Assembly: GCA_016932115.1 (NCBI GenBank)
Contig: JAFGDM010000152.1
Span: 1 to 52,039, forward strand
Length of the DNA: 52,039 bases
Source: Deltaproteobacteria bacterium
GTDB lineage: Bacteria > Desulfobacterota > DSM-4660 > Desulfatiglandales > HGW-15
Direction: 5' to 3'
In this document: positions 1,194-50,089 of the stretch, piece by piece
Position numbering within the stretch: the stretch's first letter is position 1
How the letters are laid out: each line of letters begins with the position of its first letter
Notes under the pieces: generated by a model
The model's input: only the letters and a program-made list of their open reading frames with translations
Database searches by the model: none
Told to the model about the DNA's origin: nothing
Position numbers and translations under genes: made by a program

Positions 1194-3068
1194 TTAGCGA
1201 GCAAGTGGAATCACGGGCAGAAGCACATGGGATTTCCCAAAGTGAATGTGATGGGTAACCGTGCGCATGAACGGCAAGTGGTACACTCCCCAGGTTCCCA
1301 GTCTAGAGAGGAGGTCATCTTGGTTTCTGATAATCAGTTCTATCGAATGACCTTTAAGGAAAACGTTCGATGTTGGCATCATGGCAATAGCGTACTCGAC
1401 AACTTCCCCTGCAGGGACAGGAACAGGATCCTGGCGCGGATGTATGGGTTGATAGGGCAAAGACTTTGTGGTGTCAAGCGCCCTGTGCGCCGCTTTGAGG
1501 TAACCTGCACTCACTAATTGCCTTTTCCCATCCGGATCGACATCCACTAGATCAACCATCCAGTTGGTATCATCTATGTCAATGGAAGCTTCAAGGTAAA
1601 GGGCGAGAGGGCCTGTCACCTCCATATCAGCTCCCAATGGCCCTGTACTATACACCAGGCAGTAGACGGTGGGGTCGAGATAAGGGGCCGGCTGAGTGAA
1701 GGAGTCCGGCGCAGCAAAGGTCGGTGCGTCTATCCCTAGACCTTTTCCAGGCTGGAGGTAGAACTTAGTCCATTGAGTCCGGGCAAGTGGCCATTCGTTC
1801 TCGAAGCGCCACTTATTGATACCCATAACGAACATCTTTATCGGCGGCTCATCCATAATACCGGTGTCAATCCCCTTAAGCCAATAGTCGTACCAGCTCA
1901 CGAGTTCGTCGTGGTACTCCACATAAGGCCTATCAGGAAAGTTAGGCGGGTAAAGAATTAACTTGTTGTTCTTTCTAGAGGTCCCTGTTTTCTCCCATAC
2001 GTCGAAGGTGGCAAAGATATAGAACCTCGTAATCCAGGGTGCACCCTGATAGATGGGAAGGGTTATCTTGTTGATGCCCTCAGGATGCAAATCCGCGTCA
2101 ATAAAATTGTCGAACTCAGCTTTGGGATGAAAGGACGACAGAAGGTTATCGAAGAAAAGCGGGAACTTCCTCGGATATCTTAGATAGGAGTACCATTTGC
2201 TGTTGTATCTGATGTCAGGGTGATTCAATGCATCCTCAAGCCGTCGCTTGATGTCGGGGTGGTTGAGAAACATGGGCGGCAATGGCGTGAAATCGTAGTT
2301 TGGGGCGGGAAAAGCGCTGTCATTTCCGTGCCTGCCCATGAAGATATGGTACACAAGCAGATCGTAAATACCCTTAAAATAGTCTCCAGAGCCTGCGCAG
2401 TTTTCATCTGGATGAAGGGCTACTAGGTGTGGAGGCTTCATGATACCCGCATGGATTTGATTAACCGAATAAGATGAAGGTCCCATCATGCCGACCTTCC
2501 CATTACACCAAGGCTGAACTGCAATCCATTCGACCATGTCATAGATGTCCCACATCCCAACTGAGCCGAAGCCCTCAGAATTTCCTATCCCTCGTGGATC
2601 GGGAATGATATGGGCATACCCCCTGGGAACTGTGAAATTGTAATTCATGGCCTCCATGTTCCCATCCCAAAAGGGGCTGTGATAGTACTTCTGCGGCTTG
2701 TCGGCCAGCCATCCTATTGCCTCCTGTGCATCCTTGCCCCACATACCAAAGGCGAGAAGGGCAGGGAACTTTTCCCCTTCGACATCCGGGCGGTATACGT
2801 CAGTCGCAAGCCGAACCCCATCACGCATGGCGACCATGATGTCCTTTTCAATGCGCACATTGTAAACAGGTTTTGATCCCTCATTCTTCACCAATTGAGG
2901 ATACCCGTCAAAAAGGCTACCCTCTACTTCAGCCCCATAAGGGATGCGCACAGGGATAGGCCTGTAATCTTTAATGTTGTATCTAATGGAATCCCCTAAA
3001 TAGACACTCTGCTTCTCTGTGATATGCACCGTGCCATTTTTATCTTTGATCCTATTGTCGTCCTTCAT
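1194..3068 (-). CDS. CocE/NonD family alpha/beta hydrolase (S15 X-Pro dipeptidyl-peptidase-like esterase/amidase)
   Basis: The N-terminal part (GVRLATDVYRPD...FPALLAF, PDPRGIGNSEGFG, NGKVGMMGPSSYS nucleophile elbow) matches the cocaine-esterase family. The preferred start is ATG 3068, preceded by GAGGAGG. The ORF track extends to a TTG at 3104. Confidence 0.8.
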   Translation of the reverse strand: MKDDNRIKDKNGTVHITEKQSVYLGDSIRYNIKDYRPIPVRIPYGAEVEGSLFDGYPQLVKNEGSKPVYNVRIEKDIMVAMRDGVRLATDVYRPDVEGEKFPALLAFGMWGKDAQEAIGWLADKPQKYYHSPFWDGNMEAMNYNFTVPRGYAHIIPDPRGIGNSEGFGSVGMWDIYDMVEWIAVQPWCNGKVGMMGPSSYSVNQIHAGIMKPPHLVALHPDENCAGSGDYFKGIYDLLVYHIFMGRHGNDSAFPAPNYDFTPLPPMFLNHPDIKRRLEDALNHPDIRYNSKWYSYLRYPRKFPLFFDNLLSSFHPKAEFDNFIDADLHPEGINKITLPIYQGAPWITRFYIFATFDVWEKTGTSRKNNKLILYPPNFPDRPYVEYHDELVSWYDYWLKGIDTGIMDEPPIKMFVMGINKWRFENEWPLARTQWTKFYLQPGKGLGIDAPTFAAPDSFTQPAPYLDPTVYCLVYSTGPLGADMEVTGPLALYLEASIDIDDTNWMVDLVDVDPDGKRQLVSAGYLKAAHRALDTTKSLPYQPIHPRQDPVPVPAGEVVEYAIAMMPTSNVFLKGHSIELIIRNQDDLLSRLGTWGVYHLPFMRTVTHHIHFGKSHVLLPVIPLAR

Positions 3069-3178
3069 ATGACCTCCTCTCGATTTTGCCCTAAAGCAAT
3101 ACAATATCCGCCTAGGTTCGCTTGCATTTCTAAAAATGCTCCCTTAGCGATTTCTAAATTTTTACATGTTTGTTGCGA

Positions 3179-4423
3179 CTAGGCTGGTTGAGCCTTAGAG
3201 ACCAATCTTGGAGCAGTTTCTCGCACAAAAAAACCGCACAAACCACTTACTATGAGGAAAACGGGCCCCATATAAACCGTTGCTGTTAACCCAAGGCTAT
3301 CCGCAATGCTGCCACCCACTATTGGCAGAATGCCCCCACCGATAAGTTCCCCCACACCGATAGCGGCACCTATTGCCGTTGCCGCTAACGCAAATCCGAC
3401 TGTTTCAGCAGCGACCGAGATGAGTATAGGAGAGGATCCACTGGAGAAAAACGCTGCTGCAAATATGAAAGCGAAAAGGACAGGCATGCCGGTGCCTGGG
3501 CTAAGGGACGCAAAGATGAGACCAGGAATGCCTCCGACCACCTGGCACAGGATAAGCGTCTTCCTGCGGCCGATACGATCGGAGATCATGCCGACAATAG
3601 GAGCACCCAAAAAGACGCCGACACCAAAACCAGACATCACCAACCCGATGGAAGTCATTGGCATATGGTGCACTTTTTCCAGATAGAGTACGCCGAAGGA
3701 CGTAAAAATATAAAGCCAGGCCATGTTAAAAATCCATGTTATCATCATGAGGACTATGTTACGCGATTTGAACACGTCCCAATAGCCAATTTCGTTTCCT
3801 TGATCATCCAATCGTCTTTGCTTCTGCAATCCCCGGCTTCGAGCATCGATGGCTGCCCGCGTAGAGGCCGGCTCCTTCATCACGAACCATATCAGGATGG
3901 CCAACACAAGGGCCGGGAGAGCATACACATAGAAGACAAGTCTCCATCCGTAGTGCACCATCAATTGGGTGCTAAGCACGGGCCCGATGGCGCCGCCAAA
4001 AAGCACAAAGAAACCAGCCAGTAAACCCGCGTTCCGAGCACGGCTTTCAGGAGGTGACTCTTCAGTGACGGTAGCCGCGGCAGGACCATAGATTCCTCCC
4101 TCGGCAAATCCCATGATAGCCCGAATAGCTAATAAGAAAGCGAAACTTCCGGCAATACCCGTAATCCAGCTGCAGAGCCCGCCGACTATCAGGAGACCGA
4201 CTATAACAGGTCGCCTTCCAATGTAATCGGAAAGACTACCCATAGCCCATGTACCTATTGCCCATGCTAACCCAAAAATAGCGATGATTGTGCCGCACTG
4301 GGAGTAGTTTAATCCAAAATCTTTTTGCACGCCAGGGAGTACGAAGCCCATCACCATGCGCTCTAGTCCTACAACTCCCCACATGAGCACCAACAATATA
4401 AGGATTTTGTGGAAGTATTTCAT
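3179..4423 (-). CDS. MFS transporter
   Basis: About 12 hydrophobic segments and the MFS loop motif DYIGRRP / SDRIGRRK. The preferred start is ATG 4423 (MKYFHK); the track extends to 4450. Confidence 0.8.
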   Translation of the reverse strand: MKYFHKILILLVLMWGVVGLERMVMGFVLPGVQKDFGLNYSQCGTIIAIFGLAWAIGTWAMGSLSDYIGRRPVIVGLLIVGGLCSWITGIAGSFAFLLAIRAIMGFAEGGIYGPAAATVTEESPPESRARNAGLLAGFFVLFGGAIGPVLSTQLMVHYGWRLVFYVYALPALVLAILIWFVMKEPASTRAAIDARSRGLQKQRRLDDQGNEIGYWDVFKSRNIVLMMITWIFNMAWLYIFTSFGVLYLEKVHHMPMTSIGLVMSGFGVGVFLGAPIVGMISDRIGRRKTLILCQVVGGIPGLIFASLSPGTGMPVLFAFIFAAAFFSSGSSPILISVAAETVGFALAATAIGAAIGVGELIGGGILPIVGGSIADSLGLTATVYMGPVFLIVSGLCGFFVRETAPRLVSKAQPA

Positions 4424-4482
4424 AAGACACCCCCCGTTTTTTGGTTGCATAAAAAGGACAGCATTCTCTTCTGTTTTAAAAA

Positions 4483-4649: not shown

Positions 4650-5447
4650 TCATACCACTCTATCCTGTCGCAGCCTGAGTATTAGCTTCCCGACTTTCTC
4701 TTCGGCTGATTGTCCATCGATAAAAAAGCAGTTTCTCGCCATTAGAGGAGGAGGTGTTATGGCCCGAATTGCTCTTTTCCTCAGCAGTGCCGGGTCGACA
4801 CCAAGATCTCCACGTCTCCAGACAGTCACCTGTTTTTTCCGGGCCTCCTGTATAGCCTTGAGGGTCGGCAGCCTGAGATCTCCTGCCTCGCTGCTTACCG
4901 TGACTAATGCAGGGAGGTGCGTTTCCATCACTTCGTAGCCATTGCGCCGTAACCTCTGCACGATAATTGAGCCATCCTCCATATCCACTTTCTGAACGAG
5001 GCTTATGCCCGGTATTTTCAGTATTCCCGCAATGAGGAGGCCCACCTGTCCAGAATCCCAGTCCGCCGACTGCCGTCCTGTAACAATCAGATCGAAGGAT
5101 TTAATCTTTCTTATTCCCCCCGAAAGAACCTCCGCAGTCCCAAAGCTGGTAAGGTCTTTGAATACAGGATCTTCAAGAATAATCAACTCGTCAGCCCCCA
5201 CACTGAGTGCCTTTTTCAGAATGGGACTAGTGGCCTTTTCGGACATATTGAGAGCGATCACCTTCCCGCCCCAATGATCCTTTATTTGCAATGCCAGCTC
5301 AAGGGCGTTCTCATCATAGGGATTGATGACCGGGGGGATCCCTACCGCAACCACCCTCTTGATGTCACTTTGTATTTCGTAAGAAGAGCGGTGCCCTTCT
5401 GGATCCGGAATATCCTTTATGCACACAATAATTGTAGGTGGATTCAT
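4650..5447 (-). CDS. etfB: Electron transfer flavoprotein beta subunit (copy 1)
   Basis: 265 aa with a typical EtfB N-terminus (IIVCIKDIPDPEG). It contains GRQSADWDSGQVG. There is a 4-nt overlap with the upstream etfA. Confidence 0.85.
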   Translation of the reverse strand: MNPPTIIVCIKDIPDPEGHRSSYEIQSDIKRVVAVGIPPVINPYDENALELALQIKDHWGGKVIALNMSEKATSPILKKALSVGADELIILEDPVFKDLTSFGTAEVLSGGIRKIKSFDLIVTGRQSADWDSGQVGLLIAGILKIPGISLVQKVDMEDGSIIVQRLRRNGYEVMETHLPALVTVSSEAGDLRLPTLKAIQEARKKQVTVWRRGDLGVDPALLRKRAIRAITPPPLMARNCFFIDGQSAEEKVGKLILRLRQDRVV

Positions 5448-6457
5448 TGCAATTCCATCAGTTGCTTTATCAAAGCAGGTATAATATCTTCATACCGTCC
5501 GACAACCCCATAATCAGAGGCTCCAAAGATAGATGCATCAGGATCCTTGTTTATCGCTAAAATTTTTTTTGCACCCGCTATTCCTGCCATATGCTGTGCA
5601 GCGCCTGATATGGCGACCGCAATATAAAGTTGGGGGTTTACTATCTCTCCTGTCTGACCGACTTGGTGCGAATGCGACACTAGTCCCTCATCCACAAGCG
5701 CTCTGCTTGCTCCCAATTCAACCTTGCTAAAATACTTTTTCAAGACTTCCACAAGCTTTTGGAGTTCTCCTATCCCCTCAGCGGTCTTTACACCTCTGCC
5801 ACCGGCAACAATGGCATCCGCCTGGGTAAGGCTTACCACATGCCCTTCGGGAACAATCTCAAGCGATTTCGAAAGCGCATCGGTTTCGGAAACCTTATGC
5901 CAAAAGGGTATAATTTGACCTGCGGAGACGCCTTTTTCCAAGGACTCCGTAGACTTAGGCCTCAGGGTCACGATCTGCGGCTCTGTGTCAAGCTGAAATA
6001 TTGCATATGCGTTGCCGCCATAGATTGGCTTCGTGCACAAAAGACACCCTGTTTCTGAGTCCCTCTCTATCTTAACGCAATCCGTGATAAGGTCGTTCTT
6101 CATCTTGCATGCCAGTTTCGGGGCCACTTCCCGGTTCTCATAGTTGTGTCCCATTAGCACTGTGCGAGGACCGAGCTCCCGGCACAAGCCTTCGAGGGCT
6201 GATGCAGAGAGATCCGCATGAAATTCCGAGAGAAGCACGTCGTCAATGACGTAAACCTCGTCGGCATAGTAGCTGATTGTATCGGGAAGCTTGCGTACTT
6301 TATAACCTAGGATACAAGCGCACACAAGCTCGCCTCCCCCCACTGAGAGCTCTGTTGCTGATCTTAATAACTCAAAAGTAATGGAATCAGTTTGCCCATC
6401 TGGCTTTTGTTGTACAACGACGAATATTCGCTTTCTTCCCTTTGTCACGACCCTCAT
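5444..6457 (-). CDS. etfA: Electron transfer flavoprotein alpha subunit (copy 1)
   Basis: C-terminal FAD-binding region GGRGV...SRALVDEG...QVGQTG...PQLYIAVAISGAAQHMAG. The preferred start is ATG 6457 (337 aa). The TTG at 6526 would add an atypical 23-aa extension. Confidence 0.85.
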   Translation of the reverse strand: MRVVTKGRKRIFVVVQQKPDGQTDSITFELLRSATELSVGGGELVCACILGYKVRKLPDTISYYADEVYVIDDVLLSEFHADLSASALEGLCRELGPRTVLMGHNYENREVAPKLACKMKNDLITDCVKIERDSETGCLLCTKPIYGGNAYAIFQLDTEPQIVTLRPKSTESLEKGVSAGQIIPFWHKVSETDALSKSLEIVPEGHVVSLTQADAIVAGGRGVKTAEGIGELQKLVEVLKKYFSKVELGASRALVDEGLVSHSHQVGQTGEIVNPQLYIAVAISGAAQHMAGIAGAKKILAINKDPDASIFGASDYGVVGRYEDIIPALIKQLMELQ

Positions 6458-6526
6458 AGCCTCTATTTTTATTTTACCCCCGCAAGTCCATGCGCCCGTT
6501 CGCCGGACTTGCGGAGCATTGCCCAA

Positions 6527-8113
6527 TTATGGAAATACCGGCGGTACGTAGGCTGACCAGTCACCTAAATTATTCGGATCTAATGCGTCCTTTATTTTCG
6601 TCAGCCACACATCGTAATTATCATAGAGAGGGCCCCAATTTTGAACGACGTGGCTCACAGGCTCAATCTGGAGACCTCCGCCAAGACAGGGAACCCCAAA
6701 TTTGCCGAATTTTCCCTTAGGATCGAACGTCTCGGCTGTCCATTCTCTTACGCCCTGAAGGGAGTTATCATCGTAAGGGTCGAACATAAATATACTCTCT
6801 ATGTGTGAACCAACGGAATAATTCTCATAGGGAAGGTGGAATGGGGATGCCCCGGGTTGCATGATTGCACCTTTATGTACGTAAGGCATTATTCCTTCCA
6901 GCATTGCCGTGTTCTGGTGTTTAATCATGTCCTCGGTAGCATCAGTGCATGGTGTTATAAAAAATTCACCGCAGGGCCGGAAAGTTTCTCTGACCGTGCC
7001 GATGCTCCAGAGCATGACAGCAGATCTAAGAGCGAGATACATAGGGTCATTCAATTGTGGTAAAAAGTGGCCGCGCCATTTATCAACTATTTTGCGCAGA
7101 CACTTCTCCCGATATTCCATCTCTCTCGCACTGTTCGCACCAATTACCACTAACAGGGATTGTGCAAGGCGCTGCATCTCCGCCGGATCCATTTTCTGAA
7201 ACATCTCCCAGAACTCGTCATTACCCTCACACATCTCACCCCCTATCAACATCCAGACGGAAAACCCTATCGCTGCCTGCCCGACTTCGCGTAATGCGTC
7301 ATAGGCGTCATCCCTGGTATCGAATGTAGCGCCAAATGCCTTAAAACCATCAGGGACCTTGTCAAGCCGTTTCAACGCAGGCGGTGAGCCTTTCAGTTCC
7401 CATTCTGGAGGTCCATACCAGTGATAGAGTTTGGCACTGCATTTTGTGATAACGCCATGTCCTCCGTTTGCTCCTGAATGGCCTCTTAGAATCCCTCTCA
7501 AACTGAACCCCGGCCCGTCAGCAGAATACCAATCGTTACACGCCTCAGCGGATCCCATCCTCAATATTTCCCCTGTTGGAAGGACCCATTCACAGCCGAG
7601 AACATTACGACCAAGGCCACCAGCGTAGACCTGGGTAGTACCCGATCCGAAGTGGCAACAGTGACTTGCGATTACGCCGGCCTCCGGACCAGCTGAGATC
7701 GTGCCTATGTAAAGGCCATGTTTTGCGAGCTCCATCTCGAGCCGATACACGGAAACATAAGGTTCCACTAACGCATGCATGTTCTTCACATCGATGTCCA
7801 GGATTCTGTCCATCCTTTTGAGATCAAGAATGATGGCATTCTCGCTAGCCAGTGCTGTAGACATAATCTCAAATCCTGAGGAGAAGGGTTTGAAGGAGAT
7901 CCTGTATCTGTTGCACGCTCGCACAATAGCCTGGACCTCCCCGGTGCTCCCCGGCATAACTATGGCAGCCGGTCGCGTAGACCATTTCTCATCAAAGACC
8001 AGCTTATTGCCCCATACCTGATTGTAGGTCTCCCTTACTGCCAAGTCTTGGGATATATTTTCTGGACCTACGATATCCTCTAATGCCCCGTAAGCGTCCT
8101 TTGTCAAATCCAT
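6527..8113 (-). CDS. FAD-binding PCMH-type (FAD_binding_4) oxidoreductase with a long atypical cap/C-terminal region
   Basis: RPAAIVMPGSTGEVQAIVRACNRY and IILDLKRMDRILDIDVKNMHALVEPYV are typical of GlcD/VAO-PCMH flavoproteins. ATG 8113 is preceded by GAGGAGGT. The C-terminus (DPNNLGDWSAYVPPVFP) lacks the usual NPG ending. Confidence 0.75.
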   Translation of the reverse strand: MDLTKDAYGALEDIVGPENISQDLAVRETYNQVWGNKLVFDEKWSTRPAAIVMPGSTGEVQAIVRACNRYRISFKPFSSGFEIMSTALASENAIILDLKRMDRILDIDVKNMHALVEPYVSVYRLEMELAKHGLYIGTISAGPEAGVIASHCCHFGSGTTQVYAGGLGRNVLGCEWVLPTGEILRMGSAEACNDWYSADGPGFSLRGILRGHSGANGGHGVITKCSAKLYHWYGPPEWELKGSPPALKRLDKVPDGFKAFGATFDTRDDAYDALREVGQAAIGFSVWMLIGGEMCEGNDEFWEMFQKMDPAEMQRLAQSLLVVIGANSAREMEYREKCLRKIVDKWRGHFLPQLNDPMYLALRSAVMLWSIGTVRETFRPCGEFFITPCTDATEDMIKHQNTAMLEGIMPYVHKGAIMQPGASPFHLPYENYSVGSHIESIFMFDPYDDNSLQGVREWTAETFDPKGKFGKFGVPCLGGGLQIEPVSHVVQNWGPLYDNYDVWLTKIKDALDPNNLGDWSAYVPPVFP

Positions 8114-8139
8114 TTTTACCTCCTCAATTTTTTTGCTCA

Positions 8140-9414
8140 CTACACTGCTTGACTTACAAGTTCCACAATGTCGTAGACATCCATTTTACGCCCGGTTTCC
8201 TTCACCGTATCAATGAAATTCCTGGTGCACCAAGGACATGCGCTTACGATTGCCTTGGCTCCCACCGCCTCTGCTTCTTTCAGCCTCTCTGCGCCGGTCC
8301 AGATGGCAAAATCAGGGTATGCCTCTTTAACTCCGCCACCGGCACCACAGCACCAAGCAGATTCTCTTATTCGGTACATCTCGATAAGTCTCAAGCCTGG
8401 GATACTCCTTAAGATTTCCCTGGGGATATCATAAACACCATTGGCGCCACGCCGGTATTTCTTCGGCGGATCGTGAATGATCATTTGGCCGAGGACCTTT
8501 ACCTCCTTGCCCTTCCAATGTACCCATGGTTCTGCAAGGCGGCCGAGATGGCATGGATCATGATAGGTAATGGTCAAGGGGACCTTTTGCGTGAACTTGA
8601 TGGTTCCTTCCCTGATCAGCCGATGGATGTACTCGGTAATATGGAGCACTTCAATATCGAGCTTTTGGCCTACCTTGTCATAGAGCACCTTGAAGGTCTG
8701 ATACCCGTCAGAGCAGGGGGTAACAAGCGTTGTTACGCCTGCTGCCTTGAAGACTTCCCTGTTATGCTCCGCGAACTTAATGAGTTCACCCAGGTATCCC
8801 ATCTCGTATGCGCGTCCCCCGCAACAAGCTTCATCTCGTCCCATGATACCTACATCTACGCCTGCTTTCATGAGCAGGGAAAGACCGGCTCTGGCCGTGG
8901 GCCACAACTCTTCGTCAAAAGAATATCGGCAACCGACATGGTAGAGAACCTTGGCTTTTTCCCTGGTAAGGTCCTTTACCGGTATACCTTCTGCCCATTT
9001 CCCTCGATCTGCCTTCTTGGCCTGCATCATGTTGTCTTCTTTTTTAAGACCCTCTATAACGAGCATGTGGGAAGGGTTGCCCTGACCATCCTGAACGCAT
9101 CTAATCCTCAATTCCTGCATATTCTGGAGAGGTTCTATCTCCTGAACCGCTTTACACGAGACGTCGCAACTACCATCCATTTGGCACCTGAAGACCGCAT
9201 CTGAGAAGCCCTCTGTATAGTCTATCCTGCCCTTCATAAGAGACAGGGCAAGATTGAACTTTCCACCTGCAGCATAGGCATGAAAATTGTATCTTGATGC
9301 CGATGGGCATCCTTGCATGAAATCCGGGTGACGCATACTCTCCCAGGGTATCCATTTGCAGAAGGAGCACCTCGTGCATCTTAAGGAATCGTGTTCGTAT
9401 TCTTCTATCGCCAT
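8140..9414 (-). CDS. Fe-S oxidoreductase with 4Fe-4S dicluster and two CCG domains (GlcF / HdrD-like)
   Basis: Cys clusters CTRCSFC...C and CQMDGSCDVSC. CCG-type motifs: HVGCRY...ACCGG and HDPCHLGR...WCCGAGGG. ATG 9414 is preceded by AAGGAGGG. No obvious transmembrane segment. Confidence 0.8.
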   Translation of the reverse strand: MAIEEYEHDSLRCTRCSFCKWIPWESMRHPDFMQGCPSASRYNFHAYAAGGKFNLALSLMKGRIDYTEGFSDAVFRCQMDGSCDVSCKAVQEIEPLQNMQELRIRCVQDGQGNPSHMLVIEGLKKEDNMMQAKKADRGKWAEGIPVKDLTREKAKVLYHVGCRYSFDEELWPTARAGLSLLMKAGVDVGIMGRDEACCGGRAYEMGYLGELIKFAEHNREVFKAAGVTTLVTPCSDGYQTFKVLYDKVGQKLDIEVLHITEYIHRLIREGTIKFTQKVPLTITYHDPCHLGRLAEPWVHWKGKEVKVLGQMIIHDPPKKYRRGANGVYDIPREILRSIPGLRLIEMYRIRESAWCCGAGGGVKEAYPDFAIWTGAERLKEAEAVGAKAIVSACPWCTRNFIDTVKETGRKMDVYDIVELVSQAV

Positions 9415-9430
9415 CGCGGTCCCTCCTTTC

Positions 9431-10897
9431 TCAGAAGCATAATCTTCCAGGGTTTAGTACATTGTTAGGATCGAAGATCTTTTTCACCTTTCTCTGCAGG
9501 ATGTTGGTCTCTGCAGCACGACTATAGGCGATCTTCGCCCAGGTTCCGTAAGGTCGGGAGAAGAAGGCTCCCATGTTGGCTAGGTCATAGGCCCCTTCAG
9601 TAACCAGTGACTGTGCTCGCTCCGTCTGAGTGCTATCGGTCGCGTCATAGAAAAGGTCAAATTCCAGGTGGCAGCTTGTGCCCTGGACAATGGGCTGGAT
9701 ATAGACGCCTATGTCTTCTGATGGGAAGCGGCGGGAATGAGCCAGGGTATGCATTGCTCCGATAAAAGCAGGGGAATTGTCGAGTGTGTTGAGGAAGAAG
9801 ATATCTGAAAAACCTCCTTTGTAGCGTAGCTTCCAGTAGGGTTCATCAGAAGGTTTTGTCAGGAGCTTTGTTATATCGTCCTCACTGAAACTCAAGACAT
9901 TTTGTAAATGTCTTAAATTGCCGGCCTGTTTGAGCATGTCCCGGAAATCCGCCTCCTGGTATTCTACCTTCCCCTCCGGCAATGGGCCATACCCCTCCAA
10001 CGTAACCACAAGAATCCACCGGGGAAGCGCGGCCCTTAGCTCCCTAATCTCCTCCTGATTCTTCCCTAGCAGGGAAGCAAATTTCAGATCATTGACGATG
10101 AAGCAGGTTTCACCAAGTCTAACCCGTATCAGACGATAGCTGAGATCTAAAAGAGGCTCGATGGTTTCAGAAGAAATGAGGAAAGTCCGGGTACGGGTTG
10201 ACGAAGGCCGGCACTTTACTGTTGCCCAGGTAATGATCCCGATCGTTCCCTGAGCGCCTGATATGAGCCTGCTCTCATCAAACTGGCCTAGACCAAAAGG
10301 GACCATTTGAGCCTTGCCGATTTTCCATTGATCTTCAATGGAGTCTGGTCCTGCAGCCTCTCCGCTTCGGAGTTTGTCTCCGGTTCCAAAGATGATCTCA
10401 GCACAAAGGAAGGGGTCGAGGGCGTCCCAGTGATGGGCGGGTATAGTGATGGGTTCTCTTTCCAGCATGCTTAGCGCAACCGACTTAGACCCCCTGGGAC
10501 ACAAGGGCGTATAGGTAGATAAGCCTGCCTTTTCCAGTTCCGGCTGAAGTTCACCAAATGTCACTCCGGGTTCTACCATGACTACCCAGTTTATGGGGTC
10601 AATGCGGATGATCTTCTTCATTCTGCTCAAATCGATTATGACCGATCCGCCCATGGCGGGAATCGTGTCACCCCTAAAGTGAGGGGGCCCTGAGCTCACC
10701 GGAACAAGAGGAGTCATCGTTTCATTAGCCCACTTTACTATCCCCTGAACCTCATCCGCAGTGCTGGGTTTTGCCACACATCTTGGTCTCCTACTGGGAA
10801 CGAAACTCAGGTCAGACGAATACTCCCTTAGAATGTCTATACCATCCAGGACATTTCCAGTACCCACAATGTCTTCTAACGCATTATTGTCTGACAT
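9431..10897 (-). CDS. FAD-binding oxidoreductase, GlcD / D-2-hydroxyacid (D-lactate) dehydrogenase-like
   Basis: 488 aa. FAD_binding_4 signature (KPSTADEVQGIVKWANE, VIIDLSRMKKIIRIDPINWVVMVEPGVTF) and the canonical C-terminus KKIFDPNNVLNPGRL. Strong SD (AAGGAGGAG) before ATG 10897. Confidence 0.8.
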   Translation of the reverse strand: MSDNNALEDIVGTGNVLDGIDILREYSSDLSFVPSRRPRCVAKPSTADEVQGIVKWANETMTPLVPVSSGPPHFRGDTIPAMGGSVIIDLSRMKKIIRIDPINWVVMVEPGVTFGELQPELEKAGLSTYTPLCPRGSKSVALSMLEREPITIPAHHWDALDPFLCAEIIFGTGDKLRSGEAAGPDSIEDQWKIGKAQMVPFGLGQFDESRLISGAQGTIGIITWATVKCRPSSTRTRTFLISSETIEPLLDLSYRLIRVRLGETCFIVNDLKFASLLGKNQEEIRELRAALPRWILVVTLEGYGPLPEGKVEYQEADFRDMLKQAGNLRHLQNVLSFSEDDITKLLTKPSDEPYWKLRYKGGFSDIFFLNTLDNSPAFIGAMHTLAHSRRFPSEDIGVYIQPIVQGTSCHLEFDLFYDATDSTQTERAQSLVTEGAYDLANMGAFFSRPYGTWAKIAYSRAAETNILQRKVKKIFDPNNVLNPGRLCF

Positions 10898-11225
10898 CCT
10901 GCTCCTCCTTTCTTATTAGCGCTGATAAATCTGTGTTTTTTCCTAACAGTTAACCCTGAGGTGTGTTTCTTACGTTTGGGATTTTGAACACAGTCCAGCC
11001 AGTGGCCGGCAGTGCGACCAGATTGATCGAACAGATAAGTTGACGCTTTTCTCAACAATCCCGTCCACCCTTCGATACTTCAGGATGAACTCTTAAAAGT
11101 AACAAGTATTCTGTTTTCAGTTCGACGATATATGCCTAACGGAATAACGAAAACGCCTACTCGGCCTTATTCGAAAACATCAACCTTGGAAGATTTATAC
11201 AAAAGACATGAATAATTAGGTAAGA

Positions 11226-11241
11226 TGCAACACTTATGCCA
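11226..11241 (-). promoter_or_regulatory. Sigma-54 (-24/-12) promoter reading toward the flavoprotein/Etf operon
   Basis: The minus strand reads TGGCAT-AAGTG-TTGCA, against consensus TGGCAC-N5-TTGCW. It lies between the operon and the divergent sigma-54 activator gene. Confidence 0.6.
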
Positions 11242-11305
11242 AGTCACAGCAAATTGTTAACTTACTGGAATATTGATAATAAACTGCTTCTTCCCGATTA
11301 TTATA

Positions 11306-11337
11306 TTCCATTTTGGCATTTTTAATTTCCATTTTGG
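11306..11337. promoter_or_regulatory. Two perfect 11-bp direct repeats TTCCATTTTGG, 21 bp apart (candidate enhancer/UAS for the adjacent activator)
   Basis: Repeats at 11306-11316 and 11327-11337. They lie about 65-100 bp upstream of the -24 element (relative to the minus-strand promoter) and about 70 bp upstream of the activator start codon. Confidence 0.4.
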
Positions 11338-11406
11338 AAAATACCTTGATAGTTTGCAACAAAGGTTTTGATATACCCATTTCGAGAAAAGGGAGGATTG
11401 GATCTG

Positions 11407-13023
11407 ATGAAAGCAAGCGACCTTGATCTCCGGAATCTTTTATCCTTTAATCCCGGAGGCGGTATTATTCAATTGATGGGGGATCGTGTCATTTTGCTTG
11501 ATGTGGTTGCTATGGGCCTCTTTCGCAGAGAACTGATTAACAGCCTCGGCTTCTCTGCGGCACGGAACATCCTGACGCGTTTTGGATACGCACACGGATG
11601 GCTCATCGCCGACAAGTTGGCCACCAATTATCCGGATCTGGCTAAAGAACCGTCATACGGACCTGTATTGCACATGTTGCAAGGAGTGGTTGATGTCAAG
11701 GAATTCAAGTCCACTGTGATCGGTGATCCACTTTATCACGTGACCTCTATCTGGGACAATTCCTACGAAGCAGAGCAGCATGTCCTTCAATTTGGCATAG
11801 CAAACGAGCCGGTATGTTGGACTCTGACCGGCTACGTCAGTGGATACAGTAGTCGCATTAGTGGTCGAGAGACCTATTGTATTGAGCACAAGTGCCGAGG
11901 AAAAGGTGATGCGCTCTGTCACATCGAAAGCCGTTCTAGGGAGGATTGGGGAGAAGCTATAGATGATCAACTGCTCTTCTTCCAAGAAGAAACTATAGAC
12001 GGCATACTCAGGGACATAGTCGCTAAACTTCGCCGTTCCGAGAGGCGTTTGTCAAAGCTCAAGAAGCTTATCGACAGCGACATATACCCACCGGGTATAA
12101 TAGCAAATAGCCCGGCTATGCAGCATGTCCTGGGTATTGCGAAACGTGCTGCAAAAGTCGACTCTACTGTTCTGATAACCGGGGAAAGCGGTGTCGGAAA
12201 AGAAATGATTGCACGATTCATTCATGATGAATCATCGCGAGCGGGCCGACCCTTTGTGGCCGTCAACTGCAGTGCCATTGCGGAGACACTTTTGGAAAGT
12301 GAGTTTTTCGGGCATATAAAAGGAGCATTTACCGGTGCAGATCGTGACCGTGTAGGCCTTTTTGAAGCTGCGAACGGCGGTACAATATTCCTCGATGAAA
12401 TCGGAGAGATGCCTACAGGCACCCAAACAAAGCTTTTGCGAACTCTGCAAGAAAAACAAATAAGGCGCGTGGGGGAGAGCAAGACTCGTCCTGTTGACAC
12501 CAAAGTTATCGCCGCCACAAATTGCGATTTAGCAAAAGAGATCGAATCTGGTCGATTCCGACAGGACCTATTTTACCGTCTGTGCGTTATCGAGCTCGAA
12601 GTCGTGCCGCTTCGCGATCGGGTTGAGGATATCTTACCACTGGCACGCTTTTTCCTGGGTAAAACTACCGAAAAAATGGGGCGACCGGTGAATGGATTTT
12701 CTCCAGCCGCCATCGAGCATCTTTTGATTTATAACTGGCCCGGCAATGTGCGCGAACTTCATAACGTGATCGAACGGGCTGTAGCCCTGTGTTCGACAAG
12801 TCAAATCCAATTGGAGGATTTACCTAAAGCCCTCCGGAAGGGCATACCCAAACCCAAGAGCGATGACGATATCTATCCTCTTTCAGAGCTTGAACGGAAA
12901 TATATTTTGGCGACACTGGAAATTACAAAAAACGACAAAAGATTAGCAGCACGCAAATTGAATATAGGCCTCACTTCCCTTTATCGAAAATTGAGAGAGT
13001 ACGAAGCTAATGTCTCTGTGTGA
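11407..13023 (+). CDS. Sigma-54-dependent transcriptional activator with a XylR/DmpR-type N-terminal sensor (XylR_N + V4R)
   Basis: The N-terminus aligns by eye with DmpR/XylR (RVILLDVVAMGLFRRELINSLG, EPVCWTLTGYVSGYSS, CRGKGDALC). AAA+ core with GESGVGKE, GAFTGA and ESEFFGH. C-terminal Fis-type HTH. ATG 11407 follows GGGAGGA; the track starts at TTG 11368. Confidence 0.9.
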   Translation: MKASDLDLRNLLSFNPGGGIIQLMGDRVILLDVVAMGLFRRELINSLGFSAARNILTRFGYAHGWLIADKLATNYPDLAKEPSYGPVLHMLQGVVDVKEFKSTVIGDPLYHVTSIWDNSYEAEQHVLQFGIANEPVCWTLTGYVSGYSSRISGRETYCIEHKCRGKGDALCHIESRSREDWGEAIDDQLLFFQEETIDGILRDIVAKLRRSERRLSKLKKLIDSDIYPPGIIANSPAMQHVLGIAKRAAKVDSTVLITGESGVGKEMIARFIHDESSRAGRPFVAVNCSAIAETLLESEFFGHIKGAFTGADRDRVGLFEAANGGTIFLDEIGEMPTGTQTKLLRTLQEKQIRRVGESKTRPVDTKVIAATNCDLAKEIESGRFRQDLFYRLCVIELEVVPLRDRVEDILPLARFFLGKTTEKMGRPVNGFSPAAIEHLLIYNWPGNVRELHNVIERAVALCSTSQIQLEDLPKALRKGIPKPKSDDDIYPLSELERKYILATLEITKNDKRLAARKLNIGLTSLYRKLREYEANVSV

Positions 13024-13074: not shown

Positions 13075-13365
13075 CTACTCTTGGTCGTCGCCTGGCTGAT
13101 TATATGCCTGAATCAAATCCGCAACCACCGTTTGAATTTGCTCCACGCTGGTAAGCATGAACATGGGTACATCAGGCAATTCAGATAAGTCGGCGCAAGC
13201 CCGCGGGCATCCCTGGACAACTATAACCGCCTCGGCTTCACCCGAATCCACCGTGACCCATTCCACACGGTTTCCCAACTTTTCTTTCAACTCATTTGTC
13301 GCCTCTCTCCGATTATACTGCGGGTTGCATCCCCCGCAGTATTTCAGTGCGATTTTATTCCACAC
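13075..13365 (-). CDS. Small Cys-rich protein (CxxC...CxxxC); possible thioredoxin-like Fe-S/metal-binding or CGGC-domain protein
   Basis: 96-aa ORF with a GTG start that overlaps the upstream gene by 11 nt. It contains YCGGCNP and QGCPRAC. No strong SD. Confidence 0.5.
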   Translation of the reverse strand: MWNKIALKYCGGCNPQYNRREATNELKEKLGNRVEWVTVDSGEAEAVIVVQGCPRACADLSELPDVPMFMLTSVEQIQTVVADLIQAYNQPGDDQE

Positions 13366-14800
13366 CGGCTAGCTTCTTGGCAGCCCGGATCTTCTCCCGC
13401 ATGTTGATCCGCCTACCGATCATGATCCGTTGAGCTTGAGGTGAACCGGCTCCATGCATAGATTCAGTTAGGTAACCCACGGCTGCGGTCCCTAGGGTCA
13501 GGTTTTCTATAAGCCTCAGAATCCGGAGGCGATTCTCCATCGGTATGCCGTCTTTGGCCTTGAAGTACTTCTTCAGCAAATGGCCTACCTCCCCAGACGA
13601 GAAGTCCGCTTCCGCGGGCATGGTCACCATGAGCCCACCGGCGATATCCTGAGCCAGTCGCGAGATCTCGTATGGAAACCGGGTGACATTGTGTTTGTGG
13701 ACATTAGCCAATAAAATGTCCACGCAGTAAGTGCCGCTTGGTTCCTGATGCCCTTCCGAAGCACAGGCAATGCATCCGCAGTACAGCGTTTCATTTAAAT
13801 GGTTCATTTCAACAATCTTGTCTTTGATATGGGATGCCTTCTCGACTCCGATATATTCCGCAGATGCCTGAGCGGCGCCTATGAGTACGTCCCCTACTCC
13901 GACCTTGCAAGCATAGCTCTGCCTATGGTAGGCGGCGAACAGTTCCACCAAGCGGCCGGCAAAATCGTATTCCCTGTACATAAAAAGTCGTTCCCAGGGA
14001 ACAAAAACGTCTTCAAATATAACAAGAGCTTCATGGCCGCCGAACATTATGTTCCCCTGGTCTCTCTTCCCCGGTTCAAGCTTTCTGGTGTCGCAGGATT
14101 GCCGCCCCATGACGTAAGTGATGCCCTCGGCATCTGAAGGCAGGGCAAATGAAACAGCCCAATCGGCGTCATCCGGCCCCATGGCTTGGGTAGGCATAAC
14201 TAGGATCTCATGGCTGTTCACCGCTCCGGTCTGATGTGCTTTGGCCCCTCGGACTACAATACCTTCCTTGCGCTTTTCAACGACGTGCAGGAAGGCATCG
14301 GGATCAGGCTGCTTGTGGGGAGGCAGACTGCGGTCGCCTTTCGGGTCGGTCATGGCACCATCCACGGTCAGGTCATTGATTTGCACATATCTCAAATAGT
14401 TGAGTAAACGTTGATTATATTTCGTAGCGTATTTCAAGTCGATGTCGTAAGTAATTATCGACAAGGCATTTAAAGCATCCATGCCCACACAACGTTGAAA
14501 ACAACACCCTGTCTCCCGCCCAAGTAGGCGGCCCATTTTACTCTTTTTAAGGAGATCCTCCCGGTTTTGGTGAATATGAGTGAAACGGTTTATCTTTTCT
14601 CCGGTCAGATGACTCCGGACTGTCATCAGGTCCTCGTGTTCAGGGTCATGGGCCAGTTCATAGGTCTTGGCCACCGCCAGCGCCGACGGCCTGATAATGA
14701 GGTCATCCACCGGATTTGATACCCGTCGGCCGAACATGTATACCTTCAGGTTAAGTTTCCTCAGGCTGTCAAGGTACTCTTCAGCAGTCATCAACGGCAT
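13355..14800 (-). CDS. 4-hydroxybutyryl-CoA dehydratase / vinylacetyl-CoA isomerase family protein (AbfD/HpaB fold)
   Basis: The N-terminus MPLMTAEEYLDSLRKLNLKVYMFG is typical of the family. Candidate [4Fe-4S] ligands GCCFQRC and YHRQSYAC are present. ATG 14800 is preferred over TTG 14818. Confidence 0.8.
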   Translation of the reverse strand: MPLMTAEEYLDSLRKLNLKVYMFGRRVSNPVDDLIIRPSALAVAKTYELAHDPEHEDLMTVRSHLTGEKINRFTHIHQNREDLLKKSKMGRLLGRETGCCFQRCVGMDALNALSIITYDIDLKYATKYNQRLLNYLRYVQINDLTVDGAMTDPKGDRSLPPHKQPDPDAFLHVVEKRKEGIVVRGAKAHQTGAVNSHEILVMPTQAMGPDDADWAVSFALPSDAEGITYVMGRQSCDTRKLEPGKRDQGNIMFGGHEALVIFEDVFVPWERLFMYREYDFAGRLVELFAAYHRQSYACKVGVGDVLIGAAQASAEYIGVEKASHIKDKIVEMNHLNETLYCGCIACASEGHQEPSGTYCVDILLANVHKHNVTRFPYEISRLAQDIAGGLMVTMPAEADFSSGEVGHLLKKYFKAKDGIPMENRLRILRLIENLTLGTAAVGYLTESMHGAGSPQAQRIMIGRRINMREKIRAAKKLAGVE

Positions 14801-14827
14801 GGTGTAACCGCCTTTCAAAAAACATGA

Positions 14828-18023: not shown

Positions 18024-18589
18024 CAGATCTTCTCCTGGATCTCAACTAGCTCGTAGGCTTGGTATGCAGCCGCCGCATTTTGTTTCTGTTTGCTGGGTAC
18101 GCTCTCTTTAATGGCCTCAATCAGATTCTGCATCTCCAATAACGGTTTTCGAACCACTTTGGCGTATGCACCAAGGATTACCGTGTTTACAATTGGTGCC
18201 AGCCTAGAACCAAGACCGTGAGTCAGCGCAATCTCGTTTGCATTAACTACAGCCTGAATCCCCACTGCTTTAAAGGTCGGAGCATTAGAGGCCACAGGAT
18301 AGTTTAGTATCAAAATAGATTCGGAAGCTAATCCCTTGGTCACATCCACCAGCTCCAAAAGTTTGGGGTCCAAGACCACACAAACATCCGGATTAGTAAT
18401 TTCCCCCCGGGCGCGAGCCCGCGTAACATCCACCCGAACGTAAGCGGCCACAGGTGCTCCCCGACGTTCCATGCCAAAAGCAGGGAAAGCCTGAACAAAA
18501 AGCCCCTGACGGAAATACGCCTTAGCCAGTATCTTGGAGGCGACTACTGCACCTTGACCTCCTCTACCATGTATCCGAATGCCTAGCAT
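18023..18589 (-). CDS. 2-oxoacid:ferredoxin oxidoreductase gamma subunit
   Basis: 188 aa; IRIHGRGGQGAVVASKILA is typical of PorG/VorG. GGAGGAG precedes ATG 18589. Confidence 0.85.
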   Translation of the reverse strand: MLGIRIHGRGGQGAVVASKILAKAYFRQGLFVQAFPAFGMERRGAPVAAYVRVDVTRARARGEITNPDVCVVLDPKLLELVDVTKGLASESILILNYPVASNAPTFKAVGIQAVVNANEIALTHGLGSRLAPIVNTVILGAYAKVVRKPLLEMQNLIEAIKESVPSKQKQNAAAAYQAYELVEIQEKI

Positions 18590-22590: not shown

Positions 22591-22612
22591 GTTAATAGAT
22601 GCCCTCCTCGAG

Positions 22613-25131: not shown

Positions 25132-25151
25132 TAGACCTTCCTAAACAATCT

Positions 25152-26616: not shown

Positions 26617-26627
26617 GAGCGCCCTTT

Positions 26628-27629: not shown

Positions 27630-27632
27630 AAT

Positions 27633-50088: not shown

Positions 50089-50089
50089 T

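Follow-up and report, generated by a model that had tools for sequence, protein, structure and literature searches.

The subject of this analysis is a sigma-54-controlled operon on a 52,039-nt stretch of DNA (contig JAFGDM010000152.1, positions 1 to 52,039; hereafter the window) from a deltaproteobacterium of the Desulfatiglandales. Five genes on the minus strand encode, in this order, flavoprotein A, an Fe-S/CCG protein, flavoprotein B, and EtfA and EtfB, the two subunits of an electron transfer flavoprotein (Etf). The first three are referred to as the triad. The five genes are followed on the same strand by genes for a major facilitator superfamily (MFS) transporter and a hydrolase, and a gene for a sigma-54 activator is located divergently upstream. 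An earlier note, made from the letters alone, had described such a five-gene operon. The open reading frames (ORFs) and Pfam domains bore this description out, and all of its listed elements were found at or near the places it gave. These included the second flavoprotein of about 528 aa, with FAD_binding_4 only, the soluble HdrD/GlcF-like CCG protein, with Fer4_8 and two CCG domains, and both Etf genes, with ETF/ETF_alpha domains in the expected ORFs. The features are collected in Table 1.

Table 1 Features of the operon, its control region, and the genes following it (positions in the window; Pfam E-values where given).
Feature	Position	Strand	Description
Sigma-54 activator, XylR/DmpR/MopR type	11407..13023	+	538 aa; phenol-type sensor, AAA+ core with GAFTGA, HTH_8
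Two direct repeats, candidate upstream activating sites	11297..11337	.	20 nt each, contain TTCCATTTTGG
Sigma-54 -24/-12 promoter TGGCATAAGTGTTGCA	11226..11241	-	Pattern match
Flavoprotein A	9431..10897	-	488 aa; FAD_binding_4 4.3e-18, weak FAD-oxidase_C
Fe-S/CCG protein, HdrD/GlcF-like	8140..9414	-	424 aa; CCG 8.3e-25 (two stretches), Fer4_8 1.4e-6
Flavoprotein B	6527..8113	-	528 aa; FAD_binding_4 2e-23, whole domain; no other Pfam domain
EtfA	5444..6457	-	337 aa from ATG 6457; ETF 1.7e-27, ETF_alpha 2.4e-26
EtfB	4650..5447	-	265 aa; ETF 3.5e-32
MFS transporter, anion/aromatic-acid:H+ symporter type	3179..4450	-	423 aa; MFS_1 2e-50
S15 / CocE-NonD-type hydrolase	1194..3104	-	636-aa ORF, start uncertain; Peptidase_S15 1.4e-24, PepX_C 5.8e-30

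The operon genes are separated by spacers of 16, 26, and 69 nt, and EtfA and EtfB overlap by 4 nt; the five genes are thus tightly coupled. A ribosome-binding site (GAGGAGG) lies ahead of the flavoprotein B start codon, ATG 8113. The start codon of EtfA was also checked, and its ORF was found to continue upstream of ATG 6457 as far as TTG 6526. The proteins of the window operon are deposited as MBN2033398-403, of which MBN2033400-402 are the triad. No transmembrane segment was predicted in any of the five core operon proteins.

The MFS transporter matched the D-galactonate-transporter subfamily (4.4e-36), the aromatic acid/H+ symport family (2e-31), and MhpT (4.9e-24) in NCBIfam. Its gene is also found 3' of EtfB in the closest relatives, where it is syntenic in the surveyed loci L007, L015, and L033, and the hydrolase gene is kept after it in L015 and L033. 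By this synteny, the hydrolase would belong to the module as well.

Regulator and promoter of the operon

The longest ORF of the regulator begins with TTG 11368, and a ribosome-binding site (GGGAGG) precedes ATG 11407, from which a protein of 538 aa is obtained. The N-terminus had been described in the earlier note as XylR_N plus V4R, followed by a complete sigma-54 AAA+ core with GAFTGA, and both parts of this description were verified. XylR_N (3.9e-27), V4R (1.4e-8), Sigma54_activat (8e-71), AAA_lid_14, and a C-terminal, Fis-type HTH_8 (2.5e-9) were all above the Pfam cut-offs, and the GAFTGA motif is intact at residues 306-311. The sensor domain aligned over ~190 residues, with full-length homology, to the PDB structures of PoxR (1.1e-27), DmpR/CapR (2.9e-27), and MopR (2e-24). 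The best NCBIfam model, MobR, was matched with 362 bits, for which the cut-off is 999. Judged by these scores, the regulator is a member of the XylR family and not an orthologue of a named or characterized regulator.

In MopR, H106 and W134 hold the phenolic hydroxyl group, and C155, C181, C189, and E178 are the Zn ligands (PMC9556785). H89 and W116 of the window regulator correspond to the two phenol-OH anchors, and the Zn ligands C137, E160, C163, and C171 are all kept. The equivalents of these six residues are also kept in all six XylR-type regulators found beside related operons. The effector of the regulator is probably a phenolic compound, as far as the sequence can tell. A p-ethylphenol enzyme of Aromatoleum aromaticum, which resembles p-cresol methylhydroxylase (PCMH), is likewise controlled by a XylR-type sigma-54 regulator, EtpR.

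The divergent sigma-54 promoter that had been read as pointing into the operon was recovered too. The -24/-12 element, TGGCATAAGTGTTGCA, was the sole match to TGGCAY-N5-TTGCW in the 52-kb window, in which 0.15 matches are expected by chance. It is located inside the 509-nt divergent intergenic region, is oriented into the operon, and lies ~319 nt 5' of the start codon of flavoprotein A. Two 20-nt direct repeats with TTCCATTTTGG, 21 nt apart and 85% identical, are found on the side of the element that faces away from the operon, at a distance of 56-111 nt. CCAAAATGGAA is present upstream of the promoter in L023 and L070 as well. The direct repeats are candidate binding sites of the regulator. 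Among the related loci, a -24/-12 element was found 5' of flavoprotein A only where a gene for a sigma-54 activator is also present (L005/L006/L009, L007, L008, L014, L015, L023, L070, and L073/L077). A weaker match was found in L012, in which the upstream flank is too short to judge the activator gene.

The leader between the promoter and flavoprotein A (10898-11225, ~319 nt) is unusually long. It is similar in L015 (element at -320), and only ~100 nt in L007, L008, and L014. An Rfam scan of the window, including the leader, gave no match, and scans for terminators and sigma-70 promoters gave background level only.

Subunits of the triad and the Etf

Flavoprotein A had been labeled as GlcD/D-lactate-dehydrogenase-like. 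This label is misleading, as the catalytic motif of that class is absent and the protein is nearer to the vanillyl-alcohol oxidase (VAO)/PCMH group in both sequence and fold. In a single-sequence search of the PDB with phmmer, PCMH was the best match (4e-22), compared with 1.8e-12 for LctD. Similarly, a family profile of flavoprotein A matched VAO/PCMH-type proteins with 1e-31, LDHD with 5e-26, and LctD with 5e-21. The structure was predicted by AlphaFold2 (pLDDT 74, pTM 0.76), and in a Foldseek search with this model the ranks 1-38 were all 4-phenol oxidoreductases (TM-score 0.75-0.80, with PCMH at 0.80); LDHD followed at rank 39 with 0.70. The AlphaFold2 models in this study were built from shallow alignments and are of moderate confidence only. 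By sequence and predicted fold, flavoprotein A is nearer to the VAO/PCMH 4-phenol oxidoreductases than to LDHD or LctD, and in its best matches it resembles PchCF, VAO, eugenol oxidase, and vanillyl-alcohol dehydrogenase.

The metal site and the catalytic base of the GlcD/LctD class are formed in LctD by His377, His384, Glu422, and His423 (PMC9232219). In E. coli GlcD (MG1655), the corresponding residues are H386 and H393 within HAGDGNMH (386-393) and E430 and H431 within GEHG (429-432). A motif search found neither HxGDGNxH nor GEHG in the two flavoproteins of the window. A profile of 26 diverse flavoprotein A sequences was then aligned to E. coli GlcD by hhalign, and a full-length alignment was obtained with a probability of 99.3% and ~21% identity. 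The four GlcD metal and histidine positions correspond to I400, H410, P449, and Y450 of flavoprotein A, so that three of the four are replaced and one is kept. Flavoprotein A has invariant residues of its own in the cap domain, namely Y399, H410, and R448, the last within S447-R448-P449-Y450. The NCBIfam GlcD scores were 60-68 bits, compared with a cut-off of 568. Because neither flavoprotein has the metal-and-histidine catalytic motif of GlcD/LctD, a 2-hydroxyacid dehydrogenase is not supported. The canonical form of such an enzyme was rejected by the motif search and by the profile alignment to GlcD; on this evidence, the enzyme falls outside the canonical, metal-dependent D-2-hydroxyacid dehydrogenases. 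The suggestion of an aryl-2-hydroxyacid substrate in the earlier note is undermined in the same way, with the H-x6-H and G-E-H-G motifs of GlcD missing from both flavoproteins.

Flavoprotein B aligned to the flavoprotein A family over 452 columns with a probability of 99.96% and 24% identity (hhalign), and to GlcE with a probability of 1.9%. By this comparison, it is a divergent paralogue that corresponds to flavoprotein A over its full length and has a variable cap domain. Its AlphaFold2 model (pLDDT 64, pTM 0.65) gave fold matches that do not separate the subfamilies. No residue between 231 and 511 is invariant at the level of at least 95% across the family, and flavoprotein B is the least conserved subunit. 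For this reason, and because it is duplicated in some Dehalococcoidia loci, flavoprotein B may be the specificity-determining subunit.

The Fe-S/CCG protein is composed of an N-terminal dicluster domain and two CCG domains. Across 68 family members, 16 cysteines are kept at a level of at least 96%. The N-terminal dicluster has seven of the eight cysteines (C13, C16, C19, C36, C77, C83, and C87, all invariant), and the second CCG motif keeps four. The top NCBIfam matches of the protein are thiol/disulfide enzymes (TfrB with 151 bits, DsrK, and HdrB). Its best match among solved structures is PDB 9ojn_A, a 1042-aa "Iron-sulfur-binding reductase" (3.4e-19). Its length hints that 9ojn_A may combine a flavoprotein and a CCG protein in a YdiJ-like fusion, and it might serve as a template for the flavoprotein/Fe-S interface.

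Taken together with the predicted folds, the triad would be a soluble three-subunit enzyme of GlcDEF architecture, with two flavoproteins of VAO/PCMH fold and an HdrD/GlcF-like Fe-S/CCG protein. As in E. coli GlcDEF, two FAD_binding_4 subunits and a Fer4/CCG Fe-S subunit are encoded together. Unlike in GlcDEF, the His-His-Glu metal site and the catalytic histidine are absent from both flavoproteins, and the identity to GlcD is only ~21%. The second flavoprotein is a full-length paralogue instead of a 350-aa GlcE, the gene order is D-F-E-like, an Etf is attached, and a phenol-type sigma-54 activator takes the place of GlcC.

The Etf was compared with structurally characterized Etfs. In the PDB, EtfB matched CarD best (2.5e-44), followed by the bifurcating Etfs of T. 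maritima (1.8e-31), A. fermentans (1.2e-30), and C. difficile (7e-29), and LctB (3e-24). Human ETF (5e-22 to 9.5e-22) and the AMP-type Etfs of Paracoccus and others (~1e-21) trailed the bifurcating ones. EtfA likewise matched CarE (1.6e-50) and C. difficile EtfA (2.2e-50) ahead of human ETFA (2.6e-33). By similarity, the EtfAB pair is closest to structurally characterized bifurcating Etfs, and it ranks with these (CarD 2.5e-44 against human ~1e-21) and not with the non-bifurcating group, as the earlier note had anticipated.

A second EtfAB pair is encoded on the minus strand of the window (EtfB 39542-40321, EtfA 38576-39541), beside an acyl-CoA dehydrogenase gene (37291-38457). Its EtfB, used as an internal control, ranked non-bifurcating Etfs first in the PDB (W3A1 5.7e-45, human 2.3e-32) and carries GVQADDLNEGSVG in place of the bifurcating motif.

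The beta-FAD recognition stretch of bifurcating EtfB is DGDTAQVGP, in the form quoted in PMC9232219 and used here as the reference. The bifurcating-like motif that had been noticed in EtfB, GRQSADWDSGQVG, is present; what it holds is the variant D128-W-D-S-G-Q-V-G-L136, in which five of the nine residues are identical to the reference and one more is a conservative Thr-to-Ser exchange, with Trp in place of Gly and Leu in place of Pro. The form DWD[SA]GQVG recurs in triad-linked EtfBs from several phyla, and those of L013, L029, L047, L051, L063, and the Syntrophorhabdales-type loci share the pattern DWD[SA]G.VG. This recurrence suggests that the triad-linked EtfBs form a dedicated Etf subfamily. 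EtfA has no N-terminal ferredoxin domain; its alignment begins at CarE residue 69, past the ferredoxin domains of CarE and LctC. Bcd-type bifurcating Etfs are also without this domain, and EtfA aligns from the N-termini of C. difficile and A. fermentans EtfA. The triad and EtfAB may confurcate.

Two characterized systems combine a dehydrogenase with such an Etf. In Acetobacterium woodii LctBCD (PDB 7QH2), a flavoprotein dehydrogenase of the VAO superfamily is encoded with a bifurcating-type Etf, as in the window. LctBCD sets a precedent in which electrons from the substrate and from ferredoxin are confurcated onto NAD+. Unlike the window system, it has one flavoprotein and no CCG protein, a ferredoxin domain in LctC, and the EtfB motif DGDTAQVGP, and the catalytic histidine and metal residues of LctD are not kept in the window flavoproteins. 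In CarCDE (PDB 6FAH), whose CarD and CarE were the top PDB matches above, the Etf is dedicated to a phenylpropanoid substrate. Here CarC is an acyl-CoA dehydrogenase and not a VAO-type protein, and CarE has a ferredoxin domain, which distinguishes this system from that of the window.

Related loci and the benzene-degrader proteins

A survey with one genome per species yielded 79 loci, of which 78 were analyzed; L085 was left out, having no scoreable flavoprotein B ORF. The order flavoprotein A, CCG protein, flavoprotein B is found in 68 of the 78 loci, and the others are interrupted by contig ends or frameshifts. The triad is present in Desulfobacterota (Syntrophorhabdales, Desulfatiglandales, and Desulfatibacillum isolates), Dehalococcoidia, Bacillota, Actinomycetota, Acidobacteriota, Nitrospirota, and an Asgard metagenome-assembled genome (MAG). 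The closest relatives are L015, from a delta-proteobacterial MAG (91% identity for flavoprotein B), and L007, from a Syntrophorhabdales peat MAG (87%). The genes beyond the regulator are not conserved in either of them.

Among the 35 loci that are flanked by at least 3 kb on both sides, Etf genes are found within 2.5 kb of the triad and in its orientation in 14. The estimate is that this adjacency is far above what chance would give from a few Etf loci per genome. Three arrangements were seen, with EtfA-EtfB downstream, with EtfB-EtfA or EtfB alone upstream of flavoprotein A, or with the Etf genes 2 kb downstream. In L054-L059 and L079, an EtfB-like gene stands alone directly 5' of flavoprotein A, and no EtfA was detected. 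Two tandem copies of flavoprotein B follow flavoprotein A and the CCG protein in L054, L055, L069, and L079 (Dehalococcoidia and Actinomycetota MAGs).

XylR-type regulators (818-914 bits) were found at six loci, in the clade of Syntrophorhabdales/Desulfatiglandales type. In other lineages, the triad is accompanied by GAF-type sigma-54, TetR/MerR, or two-component regulators. Genes for aldehyde oxidoreductases recur beside the triad. A tungsten-type aldehyde oxidoreductase (AOR) is encoded between flavoprotein B and EtfA in L003/L004/L046 and downstream of the triad in L014 and L022, and a molybdenum aldehyde oxidoreductase was found in L008 (799 bits), with the same domain type in L088. Acyl-CoA ligase genes lie near the triad in L003, L008, L014, and L088, and genes for Phenol_MetA_deg outer-membrane proteins in L003/L004 and L088.

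Cultured organisms also carry the triad. It is present in Desulfatibacillum alkenivorans DSM 16219 (L073) and in L077, with ACL05726.1 and WP_028315100.1 as cluster members. In the Desulfatibacillum loci, genes for an amine-oxidase-like flavoprotein and for EtfAB come after the triad, and a sigma-54 activator of ~920-940 aa and a -24/-12 element are found 5' of it. The cultured carriers include D. aliphaticivorans, which has a complete genome, and may offer an experimental system. In three Bacillota/Clostridia MAGs (L005/L006/L009), the triad is controlled by a GAF-domain sigma-54 activator and has a -24/-12 promoter to match. Two genes for ThiC-like radical SAM proteins and one for a CobT-like phosphoribosyltransferase adjoin it (genes of benzimidazole/phenolic lower-ligand type).

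The earlier note had stated that no such gene set was known. This statement is outdated, as a triad of two flavoproteins and a CCG protein was published in 2026 from anaerobic benzene degraders (PMC13101534, PMC13416013). These two papers were also all that a literature search returned on Syntrophorhabdus p-cresol genes or the gene set of the window. Toth et al. (2026) reported three adjacent ORM2a proteins as the most abundant ones in a methanogenic benzene-degrading culture (PMC13101534). These "Magic" proteins #24-26 (WAC08368-70) are an FAD-binding oxidoreductase, an (Fe-S)-binding protein, and a second FAD-binding oxidoreductase; they were modeled as a GlcDEF-like heterotrimer with at most 23% identity to GlcDEF, and protein #24, the equivalent of flavoprotein B, was proposed to be catalytic (PMC13101534). 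Musat, Rabus et al. (2026) found that BzS1_12970/80/90 account for ~1/5 of the proteome detected in a benzene-degrading sulfate reducer (PMC13416013). They suggested as electron acceptor an abundant Etf encoded elsewhere, EtfA3B3 being abundant in benzene-grown BzS1. Of the more distant homologues that share the synteny in organisms not degrading benzene, they wrote that these "likely serve other metabolic functions" (PMC13416013).

The window triad is assigned to the family of BzS1_12970/80/90 and ORM2a #24-26, in a different sub-clade, because gene order, subunit sizes, Pfam pattern, and N-terminal cysteines agree. The order is flavoprotein, Fe-S/CCG protein, larger flavoprotein in each case; Pfam recognizes FAD_binding_4 and FAD-oxidase_C in the first flavoprotein and only the N-terminal FAD domain in the larger one. 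The subunits are of 488/424/528 aa in the window and 488/431/577 aa in BzS1, and the Fe-S subunit has seven of eight N-terminal cysteines, as in ORM2a #25. As in the "Magic" cluster, CoA-ligase and beta-oxidation genes are often found beside the triad in the relatives of the window. An Etf is the suspected redox partner in BzS1 as well, but it is encoded elsewhere in that genome, whereas EtfAB is within the operon in the window. The regulators also differ, with a XylR/MopR-type sigma-54 activator in the window and TetR in the BzS1/ORM2a systems, and the second CCG motif has four cysteines compared with two in ORM2a #25. Unlike in the benzene-degrader clusters, no MaoC or type III CoA-transferase gene is present in the window. 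Unlike BzS1 and ORM2a, the host of the window is a Syntrophorhabdales-like MAG and not a known benzene degrader.

The benzene "core" clade is formed by BzS1, a Pescadero MAG, Pelotomaculum BPL, and ORM2, with 63-89% identity among them. MBN2033400-402 are absent from the top-100 BLAST tables of the BzS1 subunits, in which the weakest entries are about 40% identical; for subunit A, this puts the window protein below about 41% identity. The accessions looked up for the surveyed loci matched none in these tables either. As judged by its absence from the tables, the window triad is outside the "core" clade. The Etf-containing version of the triad with XylR-type regulation is absent from both 2026 papers. 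One related locus with a 596-aa flavoprotein B (L067) was considered as a "Magic" cluster and rejected; it is a stand-alone triad with a TetR gene.

Proposed function, alternatives, and neighboring genes

Our preferred reading, to which we give slightly more than an even chance, is that this is a catabolic operon, controlled by a sigma-54 activator of the phenol-sensor type, for a dehydrogenase that is soluble, coupled to the Etf, and active on the side chain of a phenolic or aromatic compound. The genes with their domains, the promoter, the relationships to known families, and the statistics of synteny were observed directly; complex formation, the direction of electron flow, confurcation, and the substrate class are inferred. 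A phenolic or aromatic effector would switch the regulator on, and the -24/-12 promoter would be opened. One of the flavoproteins would then dehydrogenate or hydroxylate a benzylic or alcohol carbon of the aromatic side chain, with transfer of a hydride to FAD. The electrons would reach the Etf by way of the [4Fe-4S] and CCG clusters, the second FAD, or both, and would go from there to NAD+, possibly together with those of reduced ferredoxin (confurcation), or to another carrier. Confurcation to NAD+ with reduced ferredoxin would be an attractive option in a syntroph.

In the related loci, the product would be an aldehyde, which would be oxidized by the tungsten or molybdenum aldehyde oxidoreductase and activated by a CoA ligase. 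For the relatives, a methyl- or alcohol-to-aldehyde reaction is suggested by the closeness of flavoprotein A to VAO/PCMH, by the phenol-type sensor, and by the AOR, CoA-ligase, and porin neighbors. This 4-phenol oxidoreductase chemistry, in which a phenol methyl or alcohol group is converted to an aldehyde, would suit both the phenol-type regulator and the aldehyde oxidoreductases of the relatives. Since an anion-type MFS transporter and a hydrolase accompany the module in the window, its substrate may be a phenolic acid or ester, possibly different from that of the relatives.

Several observations weigh against this reading. In VAO, phenolate is bound by the triad Y108/Y503/R504. The position of the phenolate tyrosine (Tyr108 of VAO, Tyr95 of PCMH) is occupied by Arg75 in flavoprotein A, within a high-confidence region of the alignment, and flavoprotein A would therefore not be a canonical 4-phenol oxidoreductase either. 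The C-terminal Tyr-Arg pair of VAO falls in a poorly aligned stretch beside S447-R448-P449-Y450. No cytochrome domain was found in any operon protein by Pfam, and no PchC-like partner is encoded. In comparison with PchCF, the identity is ~20%, the cytochrome c subunit is missing, and the window enzyme is predicted to be heterotrimeric, with the Fe-S subunit and the Etf as the electron outlet. On the Etf side, EtfB has Trp for Gly and Leu for Pro of the bifurcating motif, EtfA is without the N-terminal ferredoxin domain that is essential in LctC (PMC9232219), and no Etf is nearby in 20 of the 35 well-flanked loci. The lineage of the window has the MFS anion transporter and the hydrolase as its extra genes, and not a porin or an AOR; the nearest AOR in the window is 9.4 kb from the module. 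The MopR relay residues are widely kept among XylR-family members (PMC9556785), so conservation of H106 and W134 may not be diagnostic.

A bolder form of the preferred reading holds that the triad and EtfAB are a new soluble, cytochrome-independent analogue of PCMH, a benzylic or side-chain dehydrogenase/hydroxylase that gets rid of relatively high-potential electrons by confurcation with reduced ferredoxin, and that an Etf is the redox partner of the whole family. We regard this form as doubtful. If it were true, syntrophs and strict anaerobes could oxidize phenolics without a high-potential acceptor, the ferredoxin for confurcation could come from nearby aldehyde or 2-oxoacid oxidoreductases, and the Etf partnership would extend to the "Magic"/BzS1 enzyme of the benzene degraders. 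If confurcation is confirmed, flavin-based electron bifurcation would be extended to a further class of substrates.

The alternative that survives best keeps the same enzyme and substrate class. In it, a non-confurcating Etf would serve as a plain carrier of one or two electrons to a membrane Etf:quinone oxidoreductase, or the CCG protein would reduce a DsrC-like disulfide. It can draw on the EtfB motif, DWDSGQVGL instead of DGDTAQVGP, on the lack of a ferredoxin domain in EtfA, on GlcDEF itself, which is non-bifurcating and donates to quinone, and on the thiol/disulfide enzymes at the top of the NCBIfam matches of the CCG protein (TfrB, DsrK, HdrB). However, the operon has no membrane partner and its five proteins have no transmembrane helix, EtfAB is clearly nearer to bifurcating Etfs than the acyl-CoA-dehydrogenase-linked Etf of the same window, and Bcd-type bifurcating Etfs likewise do without a ferredoxin domain. 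We consider this alternative unlikely.

An Etf-coupled, confurcating aryl-2-hydroxyacid dehydrogenase, the reading of the earlier note, would function in the manner of LctBCD. It would act on phenyl-, 4-hydroxyphenyl-, or indole-lactate or on mandelate and supply aryl-pyruvate to the indolepyruvate:ferredoxin oxidoreductase IorAB, which is encoded 11.7 kb away. The GlcDEF-like architecture, the full-length alignment of flavoprotein A to both GlcD and LctD, the Etf of the bifurcating type found in LctBC, the organic-anion MFS transporter, and the phenol-type sensor would all fit such an enzyme. It is made improbable by the missing HxGDGNxH and GEHG motifs in both flavoproteins, with one of the four GlcD positions kept in flavoprotein A, by the closer relation of flavoprotein A to VAO/PCMH than to LDHD or LctD, and by the EtfA without a ferredoxin domain. 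Moreover, the triads of the relatives adjoin aldehyde oxidoreductases and not 2-oxoacid oxidoreductases. The link to IorAB drawn in the earlier note is not supported, as the synteny of IorAB and the triad is not kept in L007 and L015, the nearest relatives.

The chance is slimmer still that the operon encodes an equivalent of the benzene enzyme, in which an unreactive aromatic ring or C-H bond would be activated by radical or redox-neutral chemistry (e.g., co-substrate addition) and the Etf would prime the enzyme or recycle its electrons. The family and gene order shared with BzS1_12970-90 and ORM2a #24-26, the beta-oxidation and CoA-ligase genes that several relatives have in common with the "Magic" cluster next to their triads, and the abundance of EtfA3B3 in benzene-grown BzS1 (PMC13416013) speak for it. 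The window proteins are, however, outside the top-100 BLAST matches of the BzS1 subunits, and the authors of the BzS1 study consider it likely that the distant homologues in NaphS2 and Desulfosarcina variabilis have other functions (PMC13416013). The window also has no MaoC or type III CoA-transferase genes and four cysteines instead of two in the second CCG motif, and its regulator keeps the phenolic-OH anchors, which argues for an effector that is already functionalized. An ordinary glycolate or D-lactate dehydrogenase, i.e., a GlcDEF orthologue that lies beside an Etf by chance, would agree with the automatic JGI annotation "glycolate oxidase" and the three-subunit composition, but is highly improbable given 21% identity to GlcD, the missing catalytic motif, 60-68 bits against the NCBIfam GlcD cut-off of 568, a flavoprotein B that is not GlcE-like (1.9%), a phenol-type sigma-54 activator instead of GlcC, and an Etf adjacency far above chance.

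The anaerobic attack on benzene is a long-standing problem, and two independent 2026 studies converged on an abundant but biochemically uncharacterized complex of flavoprotein, Fe-S protein, and flavoprotein, whose family was proposed to initiate benzene breakdown. The benzene degraders of those studies are slow-growing enrichments on one substrate and without genetics. The window adds that the enzyme family is widespread and that one of its clades is signposted by a phenol-type sensor, a built-in Etf, transporters, and, among the relatives, aldehyde oxidoreductases and CoA ligases. These signposts give predictions for the partner (an Etf), the substrate (functionalized aromatics), and the product (an aldehyde). 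The operon-encoded EtfAB is direct genomic support for an Etf partnership that was only suspected in the BzS1 paper. Syntrophorhabdus cultures, the triad-bearing Desulfatibacillum isolates, and reporter assays with the regulator would be more tractable routes to the function of the family.

Other gene groups of the window were also annotated, all of them on the minus strand. An apparent operon at 13355-18589 encodes a homologue of 4-hydroxybutyryl-CoA dehydratase and a four-subunit 2-oxoacid:ferredoxin oxidoreductase, whose delta-ferredoxin forms a fusion protein with a GltD/NfnB-like flavoprotein that binds NAD(P) (16875-18023). An arylacetate link, with a phenylglyoxylate-type oxidoreductase and an HpaB hydroxylase, was considered for this operon and rejected, as the gene called "HpaB" by Pfam is a close homologue of 4-hydroxybutyryl-CoA dehydratase/vinylacetyl-CoA isomerase (1u8v, 7.5e-198). 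Its oxidoreductase subunits were likewise rejected as PadG/PadI, since they scored higher as PorA and VorB. Farther along, 20309-22255 codes for a tungsten-type aldehyde:ferredoxin oxidoreductase, 22613-25131 for IorAB, and 25152-29819 for an ABC transporter of branched-chain type and its binding protein. The genes at 20309-29819 point to amino-acid or arylacetate metabolism and are not syntenic with the triad in the nearest relatives. At 47144-51295, genes for an HMGL-like protein (47144-48394), a carboxyltransferase (48349-50088), and an enoyl-CoA hydratase-like protein (50090-51295) form a set that is reminiscent of the glutaconyl-CoA decarboxylase/carboxylase modules of syntrophic aromatic degraders.

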